Assembly (NCBI RefSeq): GCF_003334255.1
Contig: NZ_QOWU01000037.1
DNA: 51,502 nt
DNA from: Escherichia coli
GTDB lineage: Bacteria > Pseudomonadota > Gammaproteobacteria > Enterobacterales > Enterobacteriaceae
Reading direction: 5' to 3' (one strand)
The first letter of the stretch is position 1; every line of letters begins with the position of its first letter. Below the pieces are notes generated by a model. The model did not search any database and had not been told where the DNA came from. It saw nothing but the letters and a program-made list of their open reading frames with translations. This document shows, in pieces, positions 1,136 through 24,861 of this stretch. A program made the position numbers and the translations under genes.

Positions 1136-1690
1136 TCATTTATCTCCGACCGGAAACTTCTTATACAGTGTCGATATACCAACATCATAGATGATCGCCA
1201 CCTTCTGGCGAGGAACGCCTGATGCAATTAATCGCCCGGCCTGCGCCCATTGTTCTGGTGTAAGTTTGGGACGACGTCCACCAATTCGTCCCTGTGCGCG
1301 AGCAGCCTCCAGTCCAGCTTTTGTTCGTTCAACAATCAGTTCTCGTTCCATTTCAGCCAGGGCCCCCATCACATGAAAGAAAAAACGCCCCATCGGTGTG
1401 CTGGTATCAATAGCATCCGTCAGGCTGCGAAAATTAACGCCACGTTCGCGCAACTCCTCAACCAGAATGACCAGATGCCGCATACTACGCCCCAGCCGCT
1501 CCAGCTTCCAGACAACCAGAGTGTCACCTGCCGATAATGTCCTGAGCAGTTTTTTCAGTCCCGGCCTTTCGGACTTTGTACCGCTTATCTTGTCTTCAAA
1601 AATCAGCTCGCATCCTGCACAGTTCAGCGCATTACGTTGTAGATCTGTGTTCTGGTCATTTGTTGACACACGTACATAGCCAATAAGCAT
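1136..1690 (-). CDS. pin: Serine DNA invertase, Pin/Gin/Hin family (ORF open to 1726; likely start MLIGYVRVS)
   Basis: N-terminal resolvase catalytic motif GYVRVSTNDQNTDLQ with Ser nucleophile, C-terminal HTH (GVPRQKVAIIYDVGISTLYKKF); 184 aa, typical of Gin/Hin/Pin. Confidence 0.9.
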   Translation of the reverse strand: MLIGYVRVSTNDQNTDLQRNALNCAGCELIFEDKISGTKSERPGLKKLLRTLSAGDTLVVWKLERLGRSMRHLVILVEELRERGVNFRSLTDAIDTSTPMGRFFFHVMGALAEMERELIVERTKAGLEAARAQGRIGGRRPKLTPEQWAQAGRLIASGVPRQKVAIIYDVGISTLYKKFPVGDK

Positions 1691-11506: not shown

Positions 11507-13002
11507 TATGCAGACTCCTCTGAATACTGAAGACGGAACTGGTTAACCACGGCAAAGACACGCAACTGGTTAACATAGTCAGGCGGGAACAGCGTGTTCA
11601 GGCGGTTCGGATCGCTGGCATCACGCTCCACAACCAGGTACTGCTTAAACAGTTCGTAGTTTTCCACGATCCCCGCACGCTCAAGCTGACGGTAGGTTGC
11701 CAGCAGTTCCCCTTTGATCACCGCCGGTGTGACAATCGCCTGACCGGGACCAAAGCGGGTACCGTCGCTGGCAAGCTTGTGACGCCCGTACTTACTGGTA
11801 ATGACGGATTTCAGTTTGCGCAGCACATACGCGCTGGTATGCAGCGTCTCGCTGTCGAGGTAGCTGTTATCCGCAACACCGTAAGCGTTTTTCCTGTACG
11901 TGGTGACATCACGCTGAATGCGCAGCACCCCGCTTTCGACATACGCCGTTGCCACGCCATGAGACAGCAGGGTCTGTTGTTCGGTCATCGTGAACCGTTT
12001 CCCCTTCGGCGCAGGCAGCATACCCACCAGCTCACCGGTCTGCGTGGGACGTGCCGGATCGTTGCGGATAAACACCGCTGCGCGGGCGGTACGGCTTGCC
12101 GCCAGCTCGTCGGCAGGCGTCTGGGTCTCTTTTTCGTATCCCGCCAGGGTAATGTGCTGCTGGTTAAACTGGTCACCTGCGGTCACCAGTTCTGACAGCG
12201 TGCCGATCTTTGCCGTATACACATGACCATACAGCTGACGCGCATAGCTCCAGCGACCGCTGGTATCGTTCATCTCGGTCACCAGCGTGTTAACGGAGGC
12301 TGTGTCGTTGAACGGCAGGCCGATATAATCAAACGGCTCATCCGCCATTGCAGCCACCGCGCCGGTGAGAACAGGAGCGCCCGTTCCGGCGGTACCCGTC
12401 GCCACGGCAATCTGTACGCCCGCTGGCAGCACTTCGCCCCCACCAAAGCCGTAGTAATTGAGGCTGACAGGAATTTCATTCCCGCAAAGCCCCTTATGAC
12501 GCGCGGTCAGTGTGACCACGCCTGCCGAAGATGAGGCAGTAAACGGCAGGGTCGGAACGGCATTGATGGCATCCTGGATACTGCTGGCAATCGTCGCAAC
12601 GTTATCGCCGTTGGTCACCGGTGCCTGCACGCGGGTACGTCCCACATAAACATTCACCGTGCCGGTTTCGGTTGCCGCGCCGGTCACCGTCAGCGTAACC
12701 GTTGCCGCCGCGCCCGTGGCTTCCGGAACGGCAATCACATACAGCTCGCCAAACGGGTCGGTCTGGCGATAAGCCTCGACCATACGCGCCAGCTGACTTC
12801 CCGCACCACAAATCTGGCGTGCATAGTCTGCCGACGGCATCAGCACCAGACTGTTGGCAACAATCTCTGCACCGTTATTGGCGTGACCAATCAGCAACGA
12901 TGCCCCGCTGTCCTGTGCAGTATTCGCCGCCTGGTTATCCATTTCCGCATAAAACAGCGGAACCAGCGTATTCGACGGAATGGTGTTAAAGCTTATCGTC
13001 AT
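11506..13002 (-). CDS. Tail sheath protein
   Basis: 498 aa; contractile-tail sheath size and position. Confidence 0.85.
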   Translation of the reverse strand: MTISFNTIPSNTLVPLFYAEMDNQAANTAQDSGASLLIGHANNGAEIVANSLVLMPSADYARQICGAGSQLARMVEAYRQTDPFGELYVIAVPEATGAAATVTLTVTGAATETGTVNVYVGRTRVQAPVTNGDNVATIASSIQDAINAVPTLPFTASSSAGVVTLTARHKGLCGNEIPVSLNYYGFGGGEVLPAGVQIAVATGTAGTGAPVLTGAVAAMADEPFDYIGLPFNDTASVNTLVTEMNDTSGRWSYARQLYGHVYTAKIGTLSELVTAGDQFNQQHITLAGYEKETQTPADELAASRTARAAVFIRNDPARPTQTGELVGMLPAPKGKRFTMTEQQTLLSHGVATAYVESGVLRIQRDVTTYRKNAYGVADNSYLDSETLHTSAYVLRKLKSVITSKYGRHKLASDGTRFGPGQAIVTPAVIKGELLATYRQLERAGIVENYELFKQYLVVERDASDPNRLNTLFPPDYVNQLRVFAVVNQFRLQYSEESA

Positions 13003-14228: not shown

Positions 14229-14613
14229 TGCTGCCTCCGTGACTCTGCCTACATTCGCCCAGCTCCGTACACTCCAGCAGCAGAAAGCGCCGCGCCCCGT
14301 TCAGATCGCGCTGACGTTTCACCCGGTACACACTGTCACCGCAGACCACCTCATAATCAGCGGTGATCCCCCGGCGGTAACGAATGGTGATGTAATGGGT
14401 GATGGCGTCCCCGGTCTGCGCGGTTTCCTGCCAGGTGGTGGCACTGGTCTGGATAACCTTCGCCCATGTCCGGAACGTAACCGGGTATTGAGGCTCCACG
14501 CCAAAGTTATCCGCGGGCATATCCACCCGCAGGCGGATCAGGACGCGTTTATTCAGTTCACCGGGGTCCGGCAGAATGTAGGTTGCGCTGGTCTGCGCCT
14601 GACGAATTTTCAT
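14203..14613 (-). CDS. Head closure / head-tail adaptor protein
   Basis: 136 aa; position after gp6-like connector. Confidence 0.55.
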   Translation of the reverse strand: MKIRQAQTSATYILPDPGELNKRVLIRLRVDMPADNFGVEPQYPVTFRTWAKVIQTSATTWQETAQTGDAITHYITIRYRRGITADYEVVCGDSVYRVKRQRDLNGARRFLLLECTELGECRQSHGGSNGDSLFSR

Positions 14614-16405: not shown

Positions 16406-17092
16406 TTAGAAGTTCAGATTTTTCAGTGCATTCAGTGCAGAGCCCACATCCTCAGCGTCGCGCAGGGACAGTGCGCCATAGCCCCCGGCCATGAATGCTT
16501 TGGCCTGGGTACGGGAGAGTCCGACATCACGCAGGACTCTTTCGATTTTTTTCTGTTCGGGGATTTCCCCGCGGGCCAGCGCGTTCTTGACGTCGCTGAT
16601 CCGCGCCTCGTCGTTAGACGGAAACGTCACCAGACTGACTTCCCAGAGGTCGATTTCTTTCAACAGAAAGGCTTCTTTGCTCCGGTCGTATTCCCAGTCT
16701 TTCAGGACGTACCCAATAGAAAGGCCGGTTAACGAACCGGCCTTCATGTGTGCATGTGCGCGTTTTGCGAGGGGATCATCATCAATAAGCAACCGTCCCC
16801 TGACGTAAAGCCCGACATCGTCTTCCTTCATTTCGGTGTAAACACCGATGGGTTCATCCATGCGGTGCTGCCAGAGCAGCGCAGGTAACGCTTTTCTGTC
16901 ACTCCACGCCCGCAGGGAAGCAGCAAATGCCCCGGACATCACCACATCATCGTGGCTGTCCTTTACACCAAAGACGGAGCCATACCCTTCAAACTCACCG
17001 GAGTCACTGACAGATTTCAGACTCAGCGGTACATCAAGACGTTGTTTCGTCTGCATTGGCGTTATCCTTCTGCTTACCGGCTTTACTGCCAT
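16406..17092 (-). CDS. Prohead protease, HK97 family
   Basis: 228 aa; between portal and capsid. Confidence 0.8.
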   Translation of the reverse strand: MAVKPVSRRITPMQTKQRLDVPLSLKSVSDSGEFEGYGSVFGVKDSHDDVVMSGAFAASLRAWSDRKALPALLWQHRMDEPIGVYTEMKEDDVGLYVRGRLLIDDDPLAKRAHAHMKAGSLTGLSIGYVLKDWEYDRSKEAFLLKEIDLWEVSLVTFPSNDEARISDVKNALARGEIPEQKKIERVLRDVGLSRTQAKAFMAGGYGALSLRDAEDVGSALNALKNLNF

Positions 17093-18468: not shown

Positions 18469-20202
18469 TTAAAGCGAGCGGATCCCGTAGGACTCAATGT
18501 GATCAGACAGCGTGTCTTCTTTCTCGTACAGCATGGCTCTGCCAACCGCCATAATCAGCGCAACTGCACCATCAATTTTGTTTTCCGCCTGCTCCTTGAC
18601 GGGCTTCACCACATCATCGTTACCCGGAATGGTTTTGCCGACCACGTTGCCGATACACCAGGTCATGATGGGATTGCCGTCATGATGAAAACGCCCCGAT
18701 TCAATTGCCGCTTCCAGCTCTTTCATCGGGTCGGACATGTTGGTGTAGTTCTGAATGATGGTGATGGGGTTCAGGTCTTCATCCGCAAGGTCATGCGACA
18801 GCCCGGTCGCCCCGAAGGGGTCGATGGGTGACTCACTGACCGGGCTGATTTTGTTCGCCGCTTTGGCCTCCTCGAGGATGTAGCGATAATCCACCTCCGC
18901 ACCATCGGTAACGGTCAGAACGCCCATTTCCACCCATTTCTGAAAGCGCTCGGCTGTCCGGCGATCTTCATTTTTCTCGACGCTGTACACCGTGTCATAC
19001 GGTACCCAGAAGCGCGGAGCCACACTGTAGTAATGCGTTTTACCGTCAATCTCGCGGGTATAAAGTCGCGCCATACTGTTCATATCCAGCTTACGCGCCA
19101 GGTCAAAGGCCAGAATGCACGGCTGCCCCTCAAACTGCTCAAGGGTCAGTGATTTATTCTCGCAGCTCTGCCAGCTCACCAGGTTGAAATACGCCGAACG
19201 CGCCGACACCCAGATATTGAGGTGTTTTGTTTTAAAGACGTTTGCCAGACGGGCGTTATTTTTCGCACGTTGCTGCTGGCTTAACAAAAACTCGCGATAA
19301 ACCGACACACCGATATTCGGGTTAGCTTTTTCAAGTACCTGCGGGTCGGTCCAGTCGTCGCCTTCGTCAACGGTATAGATGATCCCGAACAGTTCATCGT
19401 TGGGCACCGAGCCGTTGAGCATCTCGATGACTTCCCGCCGTTTGTCGTAGCACGGCCCCTCAATGTTGTACCCGGCGGTGGTAATGGCCCACATCAGTGG
19501 CTGGCGTCGCGCCCCCATCCCGGTAAGCATCGTGGTGTAAAGCGCATCTGTGGCGTGCTCGTGATATTCATCCACCACGGCACAGTGGGGTGATGAACCA
19601 TCACCAGGGTTACCGATCAGCGGTTCAAACCGCGCACCATCCTCCGGACGGTTCATGTTTGAGGCGTTAACCTCAATCCCGAACGCTTCCGTCAGCATGG
19701 GTGTGCGTTTACACATCAGTCGTGCCGGACGAAAGACTTCCCATGCCTGTTTCTCCGTCGTGGCACCGGAATACACTTCCGCGCCGAACTCGTTATCACA
19801 GGCAAAACAATACAGGGCAACACCGGCAGAGATTGCCGATTTGCCGTTCTTACGGGGAATTTCGGTATACACCTCCCGGAAGCGGCGCAACCGGGTGCCT
19901 TTATTGACCCAGCCAAACGCACAGCAGATCACAAAGAGCTGCCACGGCTCCAGCGTGATGGGCATCCGTTTAAATGCCCACTCACCCTTGGTGTGCGGCA
20001 ACAGCTGAATAAATTTCGCGGCCCGTTCAGCCAGGTCCTTGTCGAAGCGGTAACGAAACGACTTACTTTTTTCCTCCATCAGGTCATCAAGATGGCGCTG
20101 GCAGGCCTGAATCACAAACTGGCAGGCCACAATCTTTCCGCGCACGACATCACGGGCATACTGATTGGCAGCATTTACGTTGGGGTAAGATTTCCGGCTC
20201 AT
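18469..20202 (-). CDS. Terminase large subunit
   Basis: 577 aa; Walker A-like region and C-terminal nuclease domain; ATGA coupled to terS. Confidence 0.9.
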
Positions 20203-20702
20203 GATTCGATGATTTTCAGAAACGGGTTAGTGGCTTTCTTCTGCCCCGCCAGGCCAATCAGACGCTGGCGGCTGCTGGGGTCGAGTCCGAGCATTGCCCC
20301 CGTACTGCTCATCTCGGACTCCTGTTCTTTTTTGGCGGTCAGCTCCGGATTTTTGACCATACCGCCCATTGCACCGGTGATGGTGTTGCCCTGTCTGGCA
20401 ATATTTTTCACGGCACGTCGCCAGAACTCGTAGGCCACGCACCACCGCTCAAGCACCGCGAGGTCAGTCACGCACAGCAGACCCTGACCGCAGAGTTCTT
20501 TAGTTGTCAGTTGCCACATGATCGTAGCGAGAGGGAGATCTTCTTCAGCGAACCACTCCGGTGGCTCAACACCTTTGATGGGCGTAAAAACAGGTTCATC
20601 TTTATTCAGGGCTCGCTTGCCGGGGTTTCCGGCCAGCGCCTTGCGCGCCGTTGGCTTGGGGCGACGCCCGGAACGCCCCGCCGTTCCAGCCATATGCGGC
20701 AC
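20199..20702 (-). CDS. Terminase small subunit, P27 family
   Basis: 167 aa; basic N-terminus; paired with HNH endonuclease as in HK97-like cos phages. Confidence 0.8.
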
Positions 20703-20743
20703 TCCTGGTTAAATTTCATTTTTCGCGGGTATAAAAAAACGAT

Positions 20744-20792
20744 GGGGCGGGCAGTCCGGAAGACGTCAGGTCACAGAGATTTGACCCGCCCC
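20744..20792. other. Candidate cos region: GC-rich inverted repeat GGGGCGGG ... CCCGCCCC
   Basis: 8-bp inverted arms 33 bp apart in the 116-bp HNH-terS intergenic gap, the position of cos in HK97-like genomes. Confidence 0.3.
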
Positions 20793-20818
20793 TCCCCTCA
20801 GACAGTTGAGAATTATTA

Positions 20819-21268
20819 TCACTTTAGCCGTTCACGGGCCGTCTTCGCCTTATGGCACGGCCAGCACAGGCTCTGCAGATTACTGTCTGCATCGGTGCCG
20901 CCATGCGCTTTAGGGATGATGTGGTCAACGGTTTTCGCCTCACGCACCACACCAGCACGCAGACATAACTGACACAGGCCTTTGTCACGCTTCAATATGC
21001 GCGCGCGGATACTGTCCCACTTCGAACCGTAGCCGCGCTGATGACGGGATTGCCCCGGCTTGTATTGTTTCCAGCCTTCGCTTTTGTGGCTTTCGCAATA
21101 GCCTGACGGGTCAGTCGTGGTATGGCGGCAGCCGCGAACACGGCAGGCTTTTGGGATTCGTGATGGCATATGTACTCCAATGAAGAAGCCACCGACATAG
21201 CCTCCTCCATTCATCGTGAAACTATTTTCATCTACGCAGTCATGAATTCTTTGTAGAGTTGTGATCAA
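20819..21268 (-). CDS. HNH endonuclease (packaging-associated)
   Basis: CxxC...HIIPKAHGGTDADSNLQSLCWPCH HNH motif; 149 aa immediately upstream of terS. Confidence 0.85.
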   Translation of the reverse strand: MITTLQRIHDCVDENSFTMNGGGYVGGFFIGVHMPSRIPKACRVRGCRHTTTDPSGYCESHKSEGWKQYKPGQSRHQRGYGSKWDSIRARILKRDKGLCQLCLRAGVVREAKTVDHIIPKAHGGTDADSNLQSLCWPCHKAKTARERLK

Positions 21269-21287
21269 TACAACTCACTAATGGAGA

Positions 21288-21309
21288 GGCTTGTCCAACA
21301 CGTTGGACA
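21288..21309. promoter_or_regulatory. Perfect 10-bp-arm palindrome CTTGTCCAAC ac GTTGGACAAG 20 bp upstream of HNH start
   Basis: Seen directly; followed on plus strand by T-rich tract (tttcctgtttgattt). Confidence 0.4.
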
Positions 21310-21391
21310 AGTTTCCTGTTTGATTTACTGGACACTATAGAAGGACAGAATGCCTTCCTCACTCGAATAACATTAATTAAGGAGGTTCAAC

Positions 21392-21514
21392 ATGTTTCAT
21401 TCCACAAATCATCAGGCTGTAATTATGGCTGTATCAGTTTGTGCCACAGACCTTTTCCGCTTCACTTTGAGCCTGATTCATTTCTACCTGACCGGCTCGC
21501 CTCTATCTTTTTAA
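21392..21514 (+). CDS. Small hydrophobic ORF (40 aa) with consensus Shine-Dalgarno
   Basis: TAAGGAGG 6 nt upstream of ATG. Product MFHSTNHQAVIMAVSVCATDLFRFTLSLIHFYLTGSPLSF. Lies opposite to late transcription between bor and HNH. Confidence 0.3.
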   Translation: MFHSTNHQAVIMAVSVCATDLFRFTLSLIHFYLTGSPLSF

Positions 21515-21694
21515 TCCCCGCTTTATCCAAATTGCATTGCCAGAATGCCGACAACAGACTGACATTCAAATCCTGACTACCTCCAATAGTCTGACCGTAC
21601 ACCTATATAGTTTTAAATTTCATCAATCCATTTAACTATCGTTTAATTGTTGTCACATAGGATTCTGCCGTTTTTAACAATGCAGGATAATAAG

Positions 21695-21988
21695 ATGAAA
21701 AAAATGTTGTTTTCTGCCGCTCTGGCAATGCTTATTACAGGATGTGCTCAACAGACGTTTACTGTTGGAAACAAACCGACAGCAGTAACGCCAAAGGAAA
21801 CCATCACCCATCATTTCTTCGTTTCGGGAATTGGACAGGAGAAAACTGTTGATGCAGCCAAAATTTGTGGCGGCGCAGAAAATGTTGTTAAAACAGAAAC
21901 CCAGCAAACATTCGTAAATGGATTGCTCGGTTTTATTACTTTAGGCATTTATACTCCGCTGGAAGCGCGTGTGTATTGCTCACAATAA
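21695..21988 (+). CDS. bor: Bor lipoprotein (serum-resistance, lambda Bor-like)
   Basis: MKKMLFSAALAMLITGCAQQ lipobox; 97 aa matching recalled lambda Bor almost exactly; opposite strand to lysis genes as in lambda/DLP12. Confidence 0.9.
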   Translation: MKKMLFSAALAMLITGCAQQTFTVGNKPTAVTPKETITHHFFVSGIGQEKTVDAAKICGGAENVVKTETQQTFVNGLLGFITLGIYTPLEARVYCSQ

Positions 21989-22019
21989 TTGCATGAGTTG
22001 CCCATCGATATGGGCAGCT

Positions 22020-22481
22020 CTATCTGCACTGCTCATTAATATACTTCTGGGTTCCTTCCAGTTGTTTTTGCATAGTGATCAGCCTCTCTCTGAGGGTGAA
22101 ATAATCCTGTTCAGCGGTGTCTGCCAGTCGGGGGGAGGCTGCATTATCCACGCCGGAGGCGGTGGTGGCTTCACGCACTGACTGACAGACTGCTTTGATG
22201 TGCAACCGACGACGACCAGCGGCAACATCATCACGCAGAGCATCATTTTCAGCTTTCGCATCAGCTAACTCCTTCGTGTATTTTGCATCGAGCGCAGCAA
22301 CATCACGCTGACGCATCTGCATGTCAGTAATTGCCGCGTTCGCCAGCTTCAGTTCTTTGGCATTTTTGTCGCGCTGGGCTTTATAGGTAATGGCGTTATC
22401 ACGGTAATGATTAACAGCCCATGACAGGCAGACGATGATGCAGATAACCAGAGCGGAGATAATCGCGGTTACTCTGTTCAT
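22020..22481 (-). CDS. Rz: Spanin inner-membrane subunit Rz
   Basis: [41 protein letters not shown]... matches recalled lambda Rz; ORF open to 22493. Confidence 0.9.
22079..22261 (-). CDS. Rz1: Spanin outer-membrane lipoprotein Rz1 (embedded in Rz, +1 frame)
   Basis: 60 aa, lipobox VVGC, proline-rich PPPPPAW. Confidence 0.85.
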
Positions 22482-22975
22482 TGCTGACCCCACAAACAGA
22501 TTTCACGCTCAATCTCACGACGAGTCATGAGACCTTTCCATTGCTTACCGCCAGCATATGTCCAGCGACGTAACTGATCACATGCGCCTTTGATATCGCC
22601 CTGGTTTATTTTGCGAAGAAGCGTCGATGTTCTGAAATTGCCAGCACCCACGTTGTAAACGAATGAGTAAAGAGCGCCGCGCGTTGTTTCCGGTATATCG
22701 ACTTCGATGTATGGGTTAATTTGTCTGGCGACAGTGGCAAGGTCTTTATTCAAGAGTGCTTTGCATTCTGCTTTGGTATACGTTTTACCGAGCATGATGT
22801 CTTTTCCTGTATGCCCGTGACATACGGTCCATACACCAACAATATCTTTGTATGGTATGTAGCTGACACCTTCCAGACCATCGTTACCACTTGGGCCAGT
22901 GATTAACACTGATGCTATAGCAATTGCTCCGCCACCAATAGCAGCAGCAACGGCTTTTCGTAATGATGGAGGCAT
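22478..22975 (-). CDS. R: SAR endolysin (phage 21 R-like lysozyme with N-terminal signal-anchor-release domain)
   Basis: [28 protein letters not shown]... Gly/Ala-rich SAR helix then lysozyme domain; matches recalled R21. Confidence 0.9.
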
Positions 22976-23190
22976 TATTCACCTCTCGCAGCCTTGCGCT
23001 TATCTTCTTTAATCTTGAAATAAAGGTTTGTCAGGTACGTCAGCAGGCCAAATACCAGGCTACCCAGCACACCTATTGCTGCCCACTGTGAGGGCGTGAC
23101 TTTATCGAGCAGCTGTAAAAACCAGTAACCGGCACTACCTGCTGAGGTGCCATAGGCGACACCCGTTGTTAACTTATCCATGGATTTCAT
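22975..23190 (-). CDS. S: Pinholin S21-like with dual-start motif (MKSM...)
   Basis: [31 protein letters not shown]...; two Met codons 3 residues apart (antiholin/holin). ORF open upstream to 23235. Confidence 0.85.
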
Positions 23191-23778
23191 AACCCCACCT
23201 CGCAGACAAAGCGGGTGTAAATTGAGGGAATACAACGTATCGCAAAAAAGCAGAAACGTAACAGACTCGGAGTCAGTGAATAACTCAGGTATTGAGTTAT
23301 CAGCTAATATCGAGACTCAAAAAATGGAAAAACCAGCTCGACGGCGGGTTTAAGCTGTGTGACGAAGTAACCACTCTTAACAGCATAACCAATTTTTTAC
23401 GTACGTAAACCACTGAATGATATTTATGAGAATGCTACCGAGTGTTCAAAACACCACCACAAATACATAAGAAAACCTCAACAAATAACCAATAAATAAT
23501 TTCCGGCGTTATTTTTAGTTAATTTAAATTAAACCATCGAATTATAGACCCCCCATAAATAACAGCCATTAATATAAATTAGCTAATAGGTTTATTTTTG
23601 TTCAAATAAGAGCCATAAATAGGTTTCGATAGAAAAAGTTCAGATAAAAATAGAGATCTACTTCACAAATTAAATGAGAAACTAAAACTTACATCTTGAA
23701 ATAATCACATTGATTAGATGAATATTTATCGCGCAGTGACATCATTTTTTAATAATAGTTCAAAAAAAAGGGCTCACG

Positions 23779-24861
23779 ATGAAAAAATTAACAGTGGCAA
23801 TTTCTGCTGTAGCTGCATCAGTACTGATGGCGATGTCTGCTCAGGCAGCTGAAATTTATAATAAAGACAGTAACAAGCTGGATCTGTACGGGAAAGTTAA
23901 TGCTAAGCACTACTTCTCCTCTAATGATGCAGATGATGGTGATACTACTTATGCCCGTCTTGGCTTCAAAGGTGAAACCCAAATCAACGATCAACTGACT
24001 GGTTTCGGTCAGTGGGAATATGAATTCAAAGGCAACCGCGCTGAATCTCAAGGTTCCTCCAAAGATAAAACCCGTCTTGCCTTCGCTGGCCTGAAATTCG
24101 GTGACTACGGCTCCATCGATTACGGCCGTAACTACGGTGTAGCATACGACATCGGTGCGTGGACTGACGTCCTGCCAGAATTCGGTGGTGACACTTGGAC
24201 TCAAACAGATGTGTTCATGACTGGTCGCACCACTGGTGTTGCAACTTATCGTAACAACGACTTCTTTGGTCTGGTTGATGGTCTGAACTTTGCTGCTCAG
24301 TATCAGGGTAAAAATGACCGCACTGACGTAACTGAAGCTAATGGTGATGGTTTCGGTTTCTCCACTACTTATGAGTATGAAGGATTCGGTGTAGGTGCAA
24401 CCTATGCTAAATCTGATCGCACTAATAATCAGGTTATCTACGGTAACAACGGTCTGAATGCTTCTGGTCAAAATGCTGAAGTATGGGCAGCTGGTCTGAA
24501 ATATGATGCGAACAACATCTATCTGGCCACCACCTATTCTGAAACCCAGAACATGACTGTTTTTGGTAATAACCATATTGCCAACAAAGCACAAAACTTC
24601 GAAGCTGTTGCACAATATCAGTTCGACTTCGGCCTGCGTCCATCCGTTGCTTACCTGCATTCTAAAGGAAAAGACTTGGGTGTTTGGGGTGATCAGGACC
24701 TGGTTGAATATGTTGATGTAGGTGCAACCTATTACTTCAACAAAAATATGTCCACTTTTGTTGACTACAAAATCAACCTGATTGATAAGAGCGATTTCAC
24801 GAAAGCATCTGGCGTTGCTACCGATGATATCGTTGCTGTAGGTATGGTTTACCAGTTCTAA
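23779..24861 (+). CDS. Prophage-encoded OmpC-family general porin (Lc/NmpC-like lysogenic-conversion gene)
   Basis: 360 aa, signal peptide AMSAQA, ...[17 protein letters not shown]..., C-terminal VAVGMVYQF. Lies between Q and S on the opposite strand, exactly as nmpC in DLP12 and lc in PA-2. Confidence 0.9.

Follow-up and report, generated by a model that had tools for sequence, protein, structure and literature searches.

A candidate silent cassette with promoters for phage-encoded RNA polymerases and a small hydrophobic ORF in a lambdoid prophage of Escherichia coli

A candidate cassette in the bor-HNH spacer

The DNA analysed here is a stretch of 51,502 nt from Escherichia coli (contig NZ_QOWU01000037.1 of assembly GCF_003334255.1; called the window below), which is a lambdoid prophage with its late operon on the minus strand. 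Between the plus-strand gene bor and a gene for an HNH endonuclease lies a spacer, at 21170-21694, in which we found two predicted promoters of the kind read by the RNA polymerases of T7-like and K1-5/SP6-like podophages, directed at a conserved open reading frame (ORF) for a hydrophobic peptide of 40 amino acids (aa). We propose that this spacer is a silent cassette that would be read only by the polymerase of a superinfecting podophage, and that the membrane peptide made from it would abort or exclude the infection; we give this reading a probability of roughly 55%. The identity of the promoters and the architecture of the cassette, which were deduced by sequence comparison, are themselves well supported and very probably correct. 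A preliminary description of the region had reported the palindrome and the ORF; the decisive feature, that two phage-RNA-polymerase promoters flank the palindrome, was absent from it.

In the direction of the plus strand the cassette would consist of a T7-type promoter, a 5' stem-loop, a K1-5/SP6-type promoter, a leader, a consensus Shine-Dalgarno (SD) sequence and the hydrophobic ORF. The coordinates of these elements in the window are as follows.

21266-21288, plus strand: T7-type (Teseptimavirus class II-like) promoter, -17 to +6, CAATACAACTCACTAATGGAGAG; the predicted +1 is the G at 21283
21286-21315, plus strand: stem-loop of 13 pairs with a perfect core at 21290-21311, corresponding to +4 to +33 of the T7-type transcript
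21293-21351, plus strand: block made up of the 3' half of the hairpin, a spacer and the second promoter, with 77-78% BLAST identity over 59 nt to SP6 14255-14313 and relatives
21323-21345, plus strand: K1-5-type (Vectrevirus, SP6 group) promoter, -17 to +6, ATTTACTGGACACTATAGAAGGA; the predicted +1 is the G at 21340
21346-21377, plus strand: conserved 5' leader with GCCUUCCUC, predicted to pair with the SD
21378-21386, plus strand: SD sequence TAAGGAGGT, 5 nt before the ATG
21392-21514, plus strand, opposite to the late operon: ORF of 40 aa, MFHSTNHQAVIMAVSVCATDLFRFTLSLIHFYLTGSPLSF, the presumed effector

Two promoters of the T7 supergroup

Promoter matrices were built from annotated or repeated promoters of the phages T7, T3, SP6 and K1-5; the source of the T7 matrix was 17 annotated T7 promoters, and the score ranges of real promoters were obtained by leave-one-out. 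The K1-5-type site scored 36.2 bits with the K1-5 matrix, for which genuine promoters range from 21.4 to 36.6 bits, and 29.0 bits with the SP6 matrix; no other site in the window exceeded 10.7 bits. All 23 of its nucleotides are identical to a promoter copy at position 12580 of the K1-5 genome, which is one of at least 12 copies of the promoter motif and is intergenic, upstream of a coding sequence at 12667, and 18 of the 23 are identical to the SP6 consensus. The T7-type site scored 22.4 bits with the T7 matrix, which is at the lower edge of the range of genuine promoters (22.0-38.7 bits), and the next best site in the window scored 6.4 bits. No match to the T3 matrix was found in the window. 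When the window was searched with the consensus sequences at up to 3 mismatches, each promoter was found once, the chance expectation being 0.00 for the K1-5-type and 0.02 for the T7-type site.

Both sites fit the conserved core CACTA(T/A)(A/T)G, with the initiating G and an AT-rich stretch from -17 to -13. The T7-type core at 21276-21283 is CACTAATG, with T at -1 and CAATA at -17 to -13, and the K1-5-type core at 21333-21340 is CACTATAG, with ATTTA at -17 to -13. The departures of the T7-type site are known in T7 itself, the A at -11 from phiOL and phi3.8 and the C at -17 from phi1.1A/phi4c/phi4.7, and the T at -1 is found among T7 promoters only in phi2.5. The two promoters lie 57 bp apart on the plus strand and are both directed at the SD and the ORF; in score range, in core sequence, in occurring more often than chance allows and in pointing at a gene behind them, the two sites thus agree with T7-supergroup promoters. 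When the spacer was compared by BLAST with 50,697 phage records, it matched SP6-, K1-5-, T7- and Yersinia T7-like phages at 5-8 places per genome, and hundreds of Autographiviridae genomes in all, some of the matched places being annotated 'promoter'.

The palindrome and the SP6-group block

Between both promoters lies the palindrome REINTERPRETED, with perfect 10-bp arms (CTTGTCCAAC-ac-GTTGGACAAG), and the stem-loop built on it ends 8 nt upstream of the second promoter. The palindrome had been recognised before but placed 2 bp off, at 21288-21309 instead of 21290-21311. Two perfect palindromes with 10-bp arms occur in the window versus 0.63 in Markov shuffles, which is not beyond chance alone; the only other one with arms of at least 10 bp, which has a loop of 4, lies in the head-gene region (16721-16744). 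The significance of the palindrome comes from covariation and not from symmetry itself. Across 12 distinct variants, 94.9% of the cells were paired, against 24-47% when the partners were slid by 1-3 columns. Three pairs are altered on both sides (CCAA/TTGG versus CTCA/TGAG, and U-A to C-G), of which the two central double changes always occur together and may therefore be one event. The two outer pairs are mostly G-U and change to G-C or A-U, a pairing that works only in RNA of the plus strand. This covariation, directly observed among the variants, indicates that the palindrome is an RNA hairpin of the plus-strand transcript.

The hairpin is homologous to the one that follows gp19 of SP6 and gp17 of K1-5, and its variants mirror the versions of SP6 (GTCTAAC..GTTGGAC) and K1-5 (GTCTCAC..GTGAGAC). 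In the alignment with SP6 and K1-5 the homology stops a few bases after +1. Since the block is homologous to SP6/K1-5 DNA, the promoters were probably acquired by recombination, and SP6-group phages are the probable source of the hairpin-promoter block, which may have been captured more than once. In the annotation of T3, too, promoters overlap or directly precede stem-loops (phi1.1/R1.1, phi1.3/R1.3, phi3.8/R3.8 and phi13/R13), and a promoter with a stem-loop right behind it is the native arrangement of T3/T7.

It might be argued that the palindrome is the functional unit, either as an operator for a dimeric regulator of the HNH and terminase genes or as an intrinsic terminator insulating plus-strand transcription, and that the ORF is incidental. 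The perfect 10-bp arms, the symmetric changes and a related palindrome before the first promoter in Klebsiella cassettes speak for this, and a promoter/terminator scan calls the palindrome terminator-like, albeit with a poor tail. An operator role had been suggested for the palindrome, which was said to lie 20 bp upstream of the HNH start, taken to be the TTG at 21268. That codon belongs to an in-frame upstream extension of HNH; the gene itself begins with the ATG at 21169, at a distance of about 120 bp from the palindrome, and the compensatory and G-U-only changes point to RNA rather than to a protein site. As for a terminator, the T-rich run TTTCCTGTTTGATTT that had been noted behind the palindrome is present but interrupted, and it is the AT-rich part from -22 to -13 of the K1-5-type promoter, its 3' part being the ATTTA of -17 to -13. 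The stem has 5 G-C among its 13 pairs, the tail CTGTTTGATT is interrupted, and variants replace its proximal T's (CTTCC, CCTCC), which erodes the U-tract further and makes a terminator role weak. Moreover, the same hairpin occurs in the lytic SP6 and K1-5 phages, which have no lambdoid regulators. We regard this explanation as scarcely probable.

The leader, the Shine-Dalgarno sequence and the 40-aa ORF

The ORF at 21392-21514 encodes exactly the 40 aa given in the preliminary description, on the strand opposite to the late operon as claimed there, and the SD stands at the ideal spacing. The transmembrane-like core attributed to the peptide is hydrophobic, but only moderately so: the best 17-aa Kyte-Doolittle window is 1.65 and is broken by D20 and R23. 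Conservation was assessed with 46 distinct variants from 104 loci, which were anchored by a motif in the overlap of the ORF with Rz1 (the o-spanin gene on the other strand), independently of the promoters and the SD. AAGGAGG-N4-8-ATG was kept in 44 of the 46 variants and none of them has an in-frame stop in the ORF; the SD was also unbroken in 10/10 relatives collected by BLAST. In a wider set of 138 loci, described below, about 130 have an ORF of 32-41 aa with the same end and an AAGGAGG-type SD. A chance ORF, which had been left as an equal possibility, does not agree with these observations of conservation and diversity, and the comparison indicates that the ORF is a real, conserved small hydrophobic gene.

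A reading in the style of non-synonymous to synonymous rates (dN/dS), which had been recommended for the ORF, is uninformative: most changes in the N-terminal half are non-synonymous, and the C-terminal half is under the constraint of Rz1, with which the ORF is convergent and whose tail has the last 17 codons of the ORF as its antisense. What the conservation across related prophages does show is that the ORF is kept open in all 46 variants.

The peptide matched no Pfam, PHROG or PADLOC family at E<=1, and a search of 5.8 billion proteins returned as relatives only unnamed copies of the same locus. By tblastn the peptide was found only in temperate phages, with no copy in Autographiviridae genomes. 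An origin of the ORF from SP6 gp20 or K1-5 gp18, the gene behind the homologous promoter, was rejected because the homology ends just after +1; neither the ORF nor the leader is a derivative of that gene, as the sequences are unrelated.

In the predicted structure the leader GCCUUCCUC (within 21346-21391) and the SD (GGAGGUU) form a stem that closes an AU-rich loop of 20 nt, and the predicted probability that GGAGG is unpaired was 0.07-0.12 for every transcript start tried. Such pairing may damp translation, and is not obviously common to other cassette types. Riboregulation by the leader, in which the SD would be free only in transcripts from the phage promoters, is unsupported, because the predictions have a paired SD at every start.

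Conservation across the cassette and related cassettes in other prophages

Among the 46 variants, 47% of the columns vary in the HNH-proximal flank and 57% in each of the hairpin, where the changes are compensated, and the spacer between the elements, compared with 17% in the T7-type promoter, 16% in the leader and 12% from the SD to the ATG. In the K1-5-type promoter 39% of the columns vary, mostly at -12 to -10, where all 3 do, as against 20% at -17 to -13 and 30% at -9 to +1. The alleles at -12 to -10 are CTG (K1-5 type), GGT (SP6 type, in Shigella phage SfIV and relatives), CTT and ATG, and these are the positions at which the promoter sets of K1-5 and SP6 phages themselves differ. The SfIV-type allele has the SP6 version ATTTAGGTGACACTtTAGAAGGA. 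Across the alleles a promoter is retained although its type differs.

With the Rz1 motif TCCCCGCYTTATCCARATTGCAYTGCC as the sole anchor, IMG/VR, GenBank phages and genomes together yielded 138 loci that could be used; from the genome-contig scan for this motif came 3 species representatives only. The relatives sit downstream of Rz1 in Shigella, Klebsiella and Pseudocitrobacter prophages and carry different hydrophobic ORFs, of more than 20 unrelated-looking peptide types (e.g. MLEVLNSLAPFAPAINAIVILICSIIAKYYGVLPLPF, MSHIEIIQLIDSYVLLATHIICLIIAYRKLIADLSRRS and MTHEKIVKLATAYTMLIGAVINLATHLLNLLTALPQSF), most with a best 17-aa hydropathy of 1.5-2.45. These peptides, too, belong to no Pfam, PHROG or PADLOC family, and no Autographiviridae record encodes them. 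The diversity of these ORFs, of which size, strong SD and hydrophobic core are nevertheless kept, fits a generic membrane-active effector. The cassette is absent from some Rz1-anchored loci, e.g. L112, L113 and L148. The following promoter types were seen in relatives.

K11-type promoter: AATTAGGGCCCACTATAGAGACC
T7-type promoter: TAATGCGACTCACTATAGAGAGA
K1F-type promoter: GACTTAACTATCACTATAGGGG, in Pseudocitrobacter faecalis
T3-type promoter: GATTAACCCTCACTATAGG

The more distant cassettes have K11-type and T7-type promoters; where such a cassette could be tied to a named record, it belonged to a Klebsiella prophage and its promoters were of the T7 type. Further repeated promoter-like units, for which no cognate phage was matched, were found in Klebsiella (TTTAATAGTGGCGAGTATAGA, TTTAATGTTACCGGAGTAGGAA and AAGTTACACAATAGAAC). 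Some Klebsiella loci (L109, L110, L118 and L176, e.g. L176 1330-1500) have up to four promoter-like units in series, namely a T7/K11-type unit followed by TTTAATAGTGGCGAGTATAGA, TTTAATGTTACAGGAGTAGGAA and AAGTTACACAATAGAAC; ahead of the first promoter stands another palindrome, CTTGTCTCTTATAAGAGACAAG. A link to multi-copy sites in Klebsiella podophages could be made for the second unit alone. The Klebsiella array matches genomes of the T7 family and of Klebsiella podophages at many places each, some of them annotated 'promoter'.

Six matrices of known promoters were then applied, at a threshold of at least 18 bits, to the unique sequence upstream of the ORFs. The results showed 81 matches on the sense strand in 28.4 kb and 0 on the antisense strand, compared with 3 matches in the 1.17 Mb of remaining locus DNA; a rescan of every locus gave none outside a copy of the cassette. 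Known promoters are therefore enriched about 1000-fold on the sense strand upstream of the ORFs over the rest of the same loci.

These data bear on the possibility that the region is an inert scar, in which fragments of T7-/SP6-like DNA with their promoters were caught by illegitimate recombination during co-infections in a tolerant slot downstream of Rz1, the ORF being a by-product of antisense reading through the charged Rz1 tail. Such an origin would account for the 77% identity of the hairpin-promoter block to one specific intergenic region of SP6/K1-5, for hairpin variants that mirror SP6 and K1-5 respectively, for the mosaic nature of the region (an Rz1 remnant and a bor insertion) and for a C-terminus that is simply the antisense of Rz1. 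It would not account for the retention of promoters and hairpin alone, never with flanking phage genes, nor for the stacking of promoters from different phage subfamilies, in one orientation and before a strong SD and an ORF, in unrelated cassettes across genera. Nor does it explain the lack of any antisense promoter match, the far lower variability of the T7-type promoter, leader and SD than of the adjoining DNA, and the persistence of ORF length, SD and hydrophobic core despite sequence turnover. We consider an inert scar unlikely.

Host-type signals

Since the preliminary description had likened the peptide to type I toxins, signals of the host type are of interest. No sigma-70 promoter with at least 9/12 matches was found in 20600-22100, where shuffled sequences give 1.9. 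A lenient scan yielded 8/12 sites only, one of them antisense inside the ORF at 21437, and no antisense promoter for a small RNA (sRNA) better than 8/12 was found. An Rfam scan of 20000-23000 at E<=1 returned only a chance match to a microRNA family, with E 0.13, inside bor. A 409-bp module containing the cassette is present in 633 of 5426 complete E. coli genomes, and among 634 records PGAP annotates neither a gene nor an sRNA in it; E. coli G1/2 (CP060083) is a 100% identical lysogen. The peptide showed no homology at E<=1 to Hok, Ldr, Ibs, TisB, ShoB, Zor or other toxins in Pfam, PHROG and PADLOC.

A type I toxin, or a constitutive exclusion peptide, would be expressed from host promoters under the control of antisense RNA, by late read-through or a dedicated sRNA, and the likeness to phage promoters would be irrelevant. 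A small hydrophobic ORF (40 aa, 1.65) opposite to the late operon agrees with this, as do the predicted sequestration of the SD, which is common in type I toxin mRNAs, and the weak 8/12 sigma-70-like sites including that at 21437. The type I comparison does not hold for the rest, because neither a host promoter of 9/12 or better, an antisense sRNA antitoxin, an Rfam family nor an annotated gene or sRNA was detected in the scans above, and because the promoter matches and their enrichment are left unexplained. We consider it highly improbable.

Proposed mode of action

To our knowledge, lambdoid phages encode no single-subunit RNA polymerase; as a host-type promoter was not found either, the cassette should be silent. 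It would stay so in the lysogen and during the lytic growth of the prophage, when only antisense late transcripts would cross it. A superinfecting T7-like or K1-5/SP6-like podophage would make its own polymerase and shut off host transcription, and this polymerase would transcribe the cassette from 21283 and/or 21340. According to the annotation of the T7 record, gp0.7 and gp2 inhibit the host RNA polymerase and gene 6 degrades host DNA; given that T7 inhibits the host enzyme, a trigger that relies on the invader's own polymerase would be logical. In E. coli, mRNA is known to be stabilised by a stem-loop lying within 3 nt of the 5' end, and the one near the 5' end of the T7-type transcript would act in this way. 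The strong consensus SD would then drive translation of the peptide, which would enter the inner membrane and, by depolarising it, lysing the cell too early or blocking genome entry, harm the infected cell or the infection itself, with the outcome that sister lysogens are protected. We infer from the sequence that the polymerases would recognise the promoters in vivo and that the peptide would be targeted to the membrane, be toxic and confer a defence phenotype. The earlier suggestion of a phage exclusion peptide comes close to this explanation, as far as the presumed effect is concerned.

Several points weigh against a cassette triggered by the invader. The T7-type site is at the bottom of the score range of real promoters and has T at -1, and one common allele (O157:H7 type, with A-to-G at -6) scores less than 18 bits. 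Part of the 'conservation' of the promoters could reflect recent capture. The hydropathy of the peptide in the window is moderate (1.65, with D20 and R23) and that of the SfIV allele is lower (1.05). The N-terminal half of the ORF changes mostly non-synonymously and its C-terminal half is held by Rz1 on the other strand, so that there is no classical signal of purifying selection. The predicted pairing with the leader largely occupies the SD, and the degradation of host DNA by T7-type phages leaves limited time for transcription. All the alternatives considered in this paper are nevertheless less likely than the cassette model.

Tentatively, and at a little short of even odds, we go one step further and suggest that the cassette is a natural 'promoter trap', in which a silent micro-gene for a membrane-active peptide is preceded by an array of promoters whose sources are virulent Autographiviridae of several genera (T7, SP6, K1-5, K11 and K1F types). 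The invader would transcribe this gene with the very polymerase by which it escapes the shut-off of the host, and the promoter repertoire would be swapped by recombination with the invaders and track the local phages, as in the exchange between K1-5 and SP6 versions at -12 to -10. If this is true, the trap would be a form of innate immunity that senses the DNA specificity of a viral enzyme without a protein sensor, a principle unreported for natural anti-phage systems, encoded in about 250 bp and immune to the shut-off of host transcription. In about every ninth sequenced E. coli genome, and in Klebsiella prophages, it would also explain unrecognised resistance to therapeutic phages of the T7-, K1-5/K1E- and SP6-like kinds. 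Phages with altered polymerase or promoter specificity would be expected to escape, and the trap may be a driver of promoter diversification in the Autographiviridae. The cassettes would, moreover, offer ready-made, naturally insulated phage-inducible switches. Apart from this, the analysis reveals a widespread family of unannotated genes of 32-41 aa.

Comparison with known systems

The late transcription units of the T7 supergroup, in which a promoter is followed by a 5' stem-loop or RNase III site and a strong SD (T7 phi10, as used in pET, and T3 phi1.1-R1.1, phi1.3-R1.3 and phi13-R13), share with the cassette the 23-bp promoter architecture, a start rich in G and purines, a stem-loop a few bases after +1 and an SD of the AAGGAG type. 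Unlike them, the cassette is found in a temperate lambdoid prophage without such a polymerase, stacks two polymerase specificities and has a product without a homolog in Autographiviridae. With the lambda morons bor and lom it shares the slot downstream of Rz/Rz1 and before the packaging genes, as well as the anti-late orientation of bor; it adjoins bor/iss and is an autonomous unit between late genes (Rz1 and HNH) that is missing from some relatives. In the lysogen, morons are expressed from sigma-70 promoters of the host, whereas the cassette has phage-polymerase promoters only, with no sigma-70 promoter detected and no terminator-like site before bor.

Small membrane toxins are known to act in abortive infection: type I hok/sok excludes T4, and PifA of the F plasmid excludes T7. 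The peptide resembles them as a hydrophobic product of less than 50 aa without an enzyme domain, for which membrane damage is plausible; the trigger differs, being antisense RNA decay or protein sensing in those systems and transcription by the invader's polymerase in our proposal. Promoters that answer to an invader are known from P4, whose late promoters respond to P2 Ogr, from PICI and PLE satellites, and from the engineered phi31-promoter 'triggered suicide' cassette of Lactococcus. These, too, are silent until the incoming phage supplies a transcription factor; they respond, however, to activators of the host polymerase, and they serve the spread of a satellite or are man-made, whereas in the cassette a micro-ORF would be preceded by natural promoters that have several specificities and are each read by a complete foreign polymerase. 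Holins and pinholins are likewise small membrane proteins encoded beside S, R, Rz and Rz1, but the ORF is on the opposite strand and has a single short hydrophobic stretch, and no Pfam or PHROG holin family was matched.

The full-text literature that was accessible to searching returned no account of phage-polymerase promoters in prophages, although an earlier mention may exist. The svsR sRNA of prophage NC-SV, at the 3' end of cI (PMC12803456), and Gifsy gipd474, an ATPase-domain protein (PMC12724215), belong to unrelated loci.

Genomic context and mosaic origin

The genes around the cassette are listed below in the order of their coordinates in the window.

18469-20202, late operon: large terminase
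20199-20702, late operon: P27-family small terminase
20819-21169, minus strand: HNH endonuclease, 116 aa, ATG at 21169, placed by PGAP annotation in related genomes and by alignments
21462-21581, minus strand: remnant of the 3' end of an SfIV-type Rz1/LysC o-spanin gene, reading ...DLNVSLLSAFWQCNLDKAGIKKIEASRSGRNESGSK* compared with ...LDLNVSLLSALGQCNLDKAGIRRIEASRSGRSESGSK* in the intact Rz1 of SfIV (asterisk, stop)
21695-21988, plus strand: bor/iss
22020-23235, minus strand, late operon: holin, endolysin and Rz genes

The stretch 21150-21581 is 85% identical to Shigella phage SfIV, in which the spacer is flanked by HNH and an intact Rz1 gene. The homology to SfIV stops near 21581, and lambda-type bor sequence begins at about 21577; PGAP labels the stretch corresponding to 21462-21581 an Rz1 pseudogene in CP128613. 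It appears that, by recombination inside Rz1, a lambda-type module of bor and Rz/R/S displaced the original lysis cassette. Upstream of the holin gene, on the plus strand and thus anti-late, lies a porin gene (23779-24861; 360 aa; Pfam Porin_1, E 3e-152), which is downstream of the cassette and bor on their strand and recalls the Lc/NmpC porins of other lambdoid prophages.

From this arrangement it could be supposed that the promoters are functional but serve another beneficiary, through read-through into bor (21695), the porin gene (23779) and later cI and the early-left genes, through RNA antisense to the lysis genes, or through piracy, the prophage DNA being marked so that the invader replicates or packages it. 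Indeed, bor starts 181 bp past the ORF with no terminator-like site found in between, and the porin gene is next on that strand. In T7, promoters are used at the origin of replication, and T3 has an origin annotated beside phi1.05. Yet the ancestral SfIV-type and the Klebsiella arrangements have no bor, and there the transcript would run antisense into Rz1, Rz and R; the SD and the small ORF are the only element that always stands behind the promoters. We therefore judge another beneficiary quite unlikely.

A cos site in the bor-HNH spacer was also considered and dropped, because the linear end of the SfIV record is just past HNH and not in the spacer. The spacer between HNH and the small terminase gene (20703-20818) contains symmetric sequence rich in G, GGGGCGGGCAG ... 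CCCGCCCCTCCCC; with HK97-type phages as a guide, a cos site would be expected in this spacer.

The neighbourhood of the cassette varies among the relatives. Two loci (L008 and L009; locus 1203-1397, minus strand) have a hypothetical gene of 64 aa, WP_109161702, between the cassette and HNH. In E. coli IAI39 (L007, locus 1348-1881) the cassette is kept beside an HNH pseudogene that is truncated, and both the terminase (DUF1441 plus GpA type) and the lysis cassette of that prophage are different; this retention in changed surroundings suggests that the module moves or survives independently of its neighbours. Finally, seven IMG/VR contigs (L036, L039, L043, L045, L076, L086 and L108) carry a second, degenerate copy of both promoters and the leader, in which the SD is mutated to TTACGGAGC and the ATG is missing, fused into the 5' part of the HNH gene region; this points to a tandem duplication or rearrangement of the cassette.

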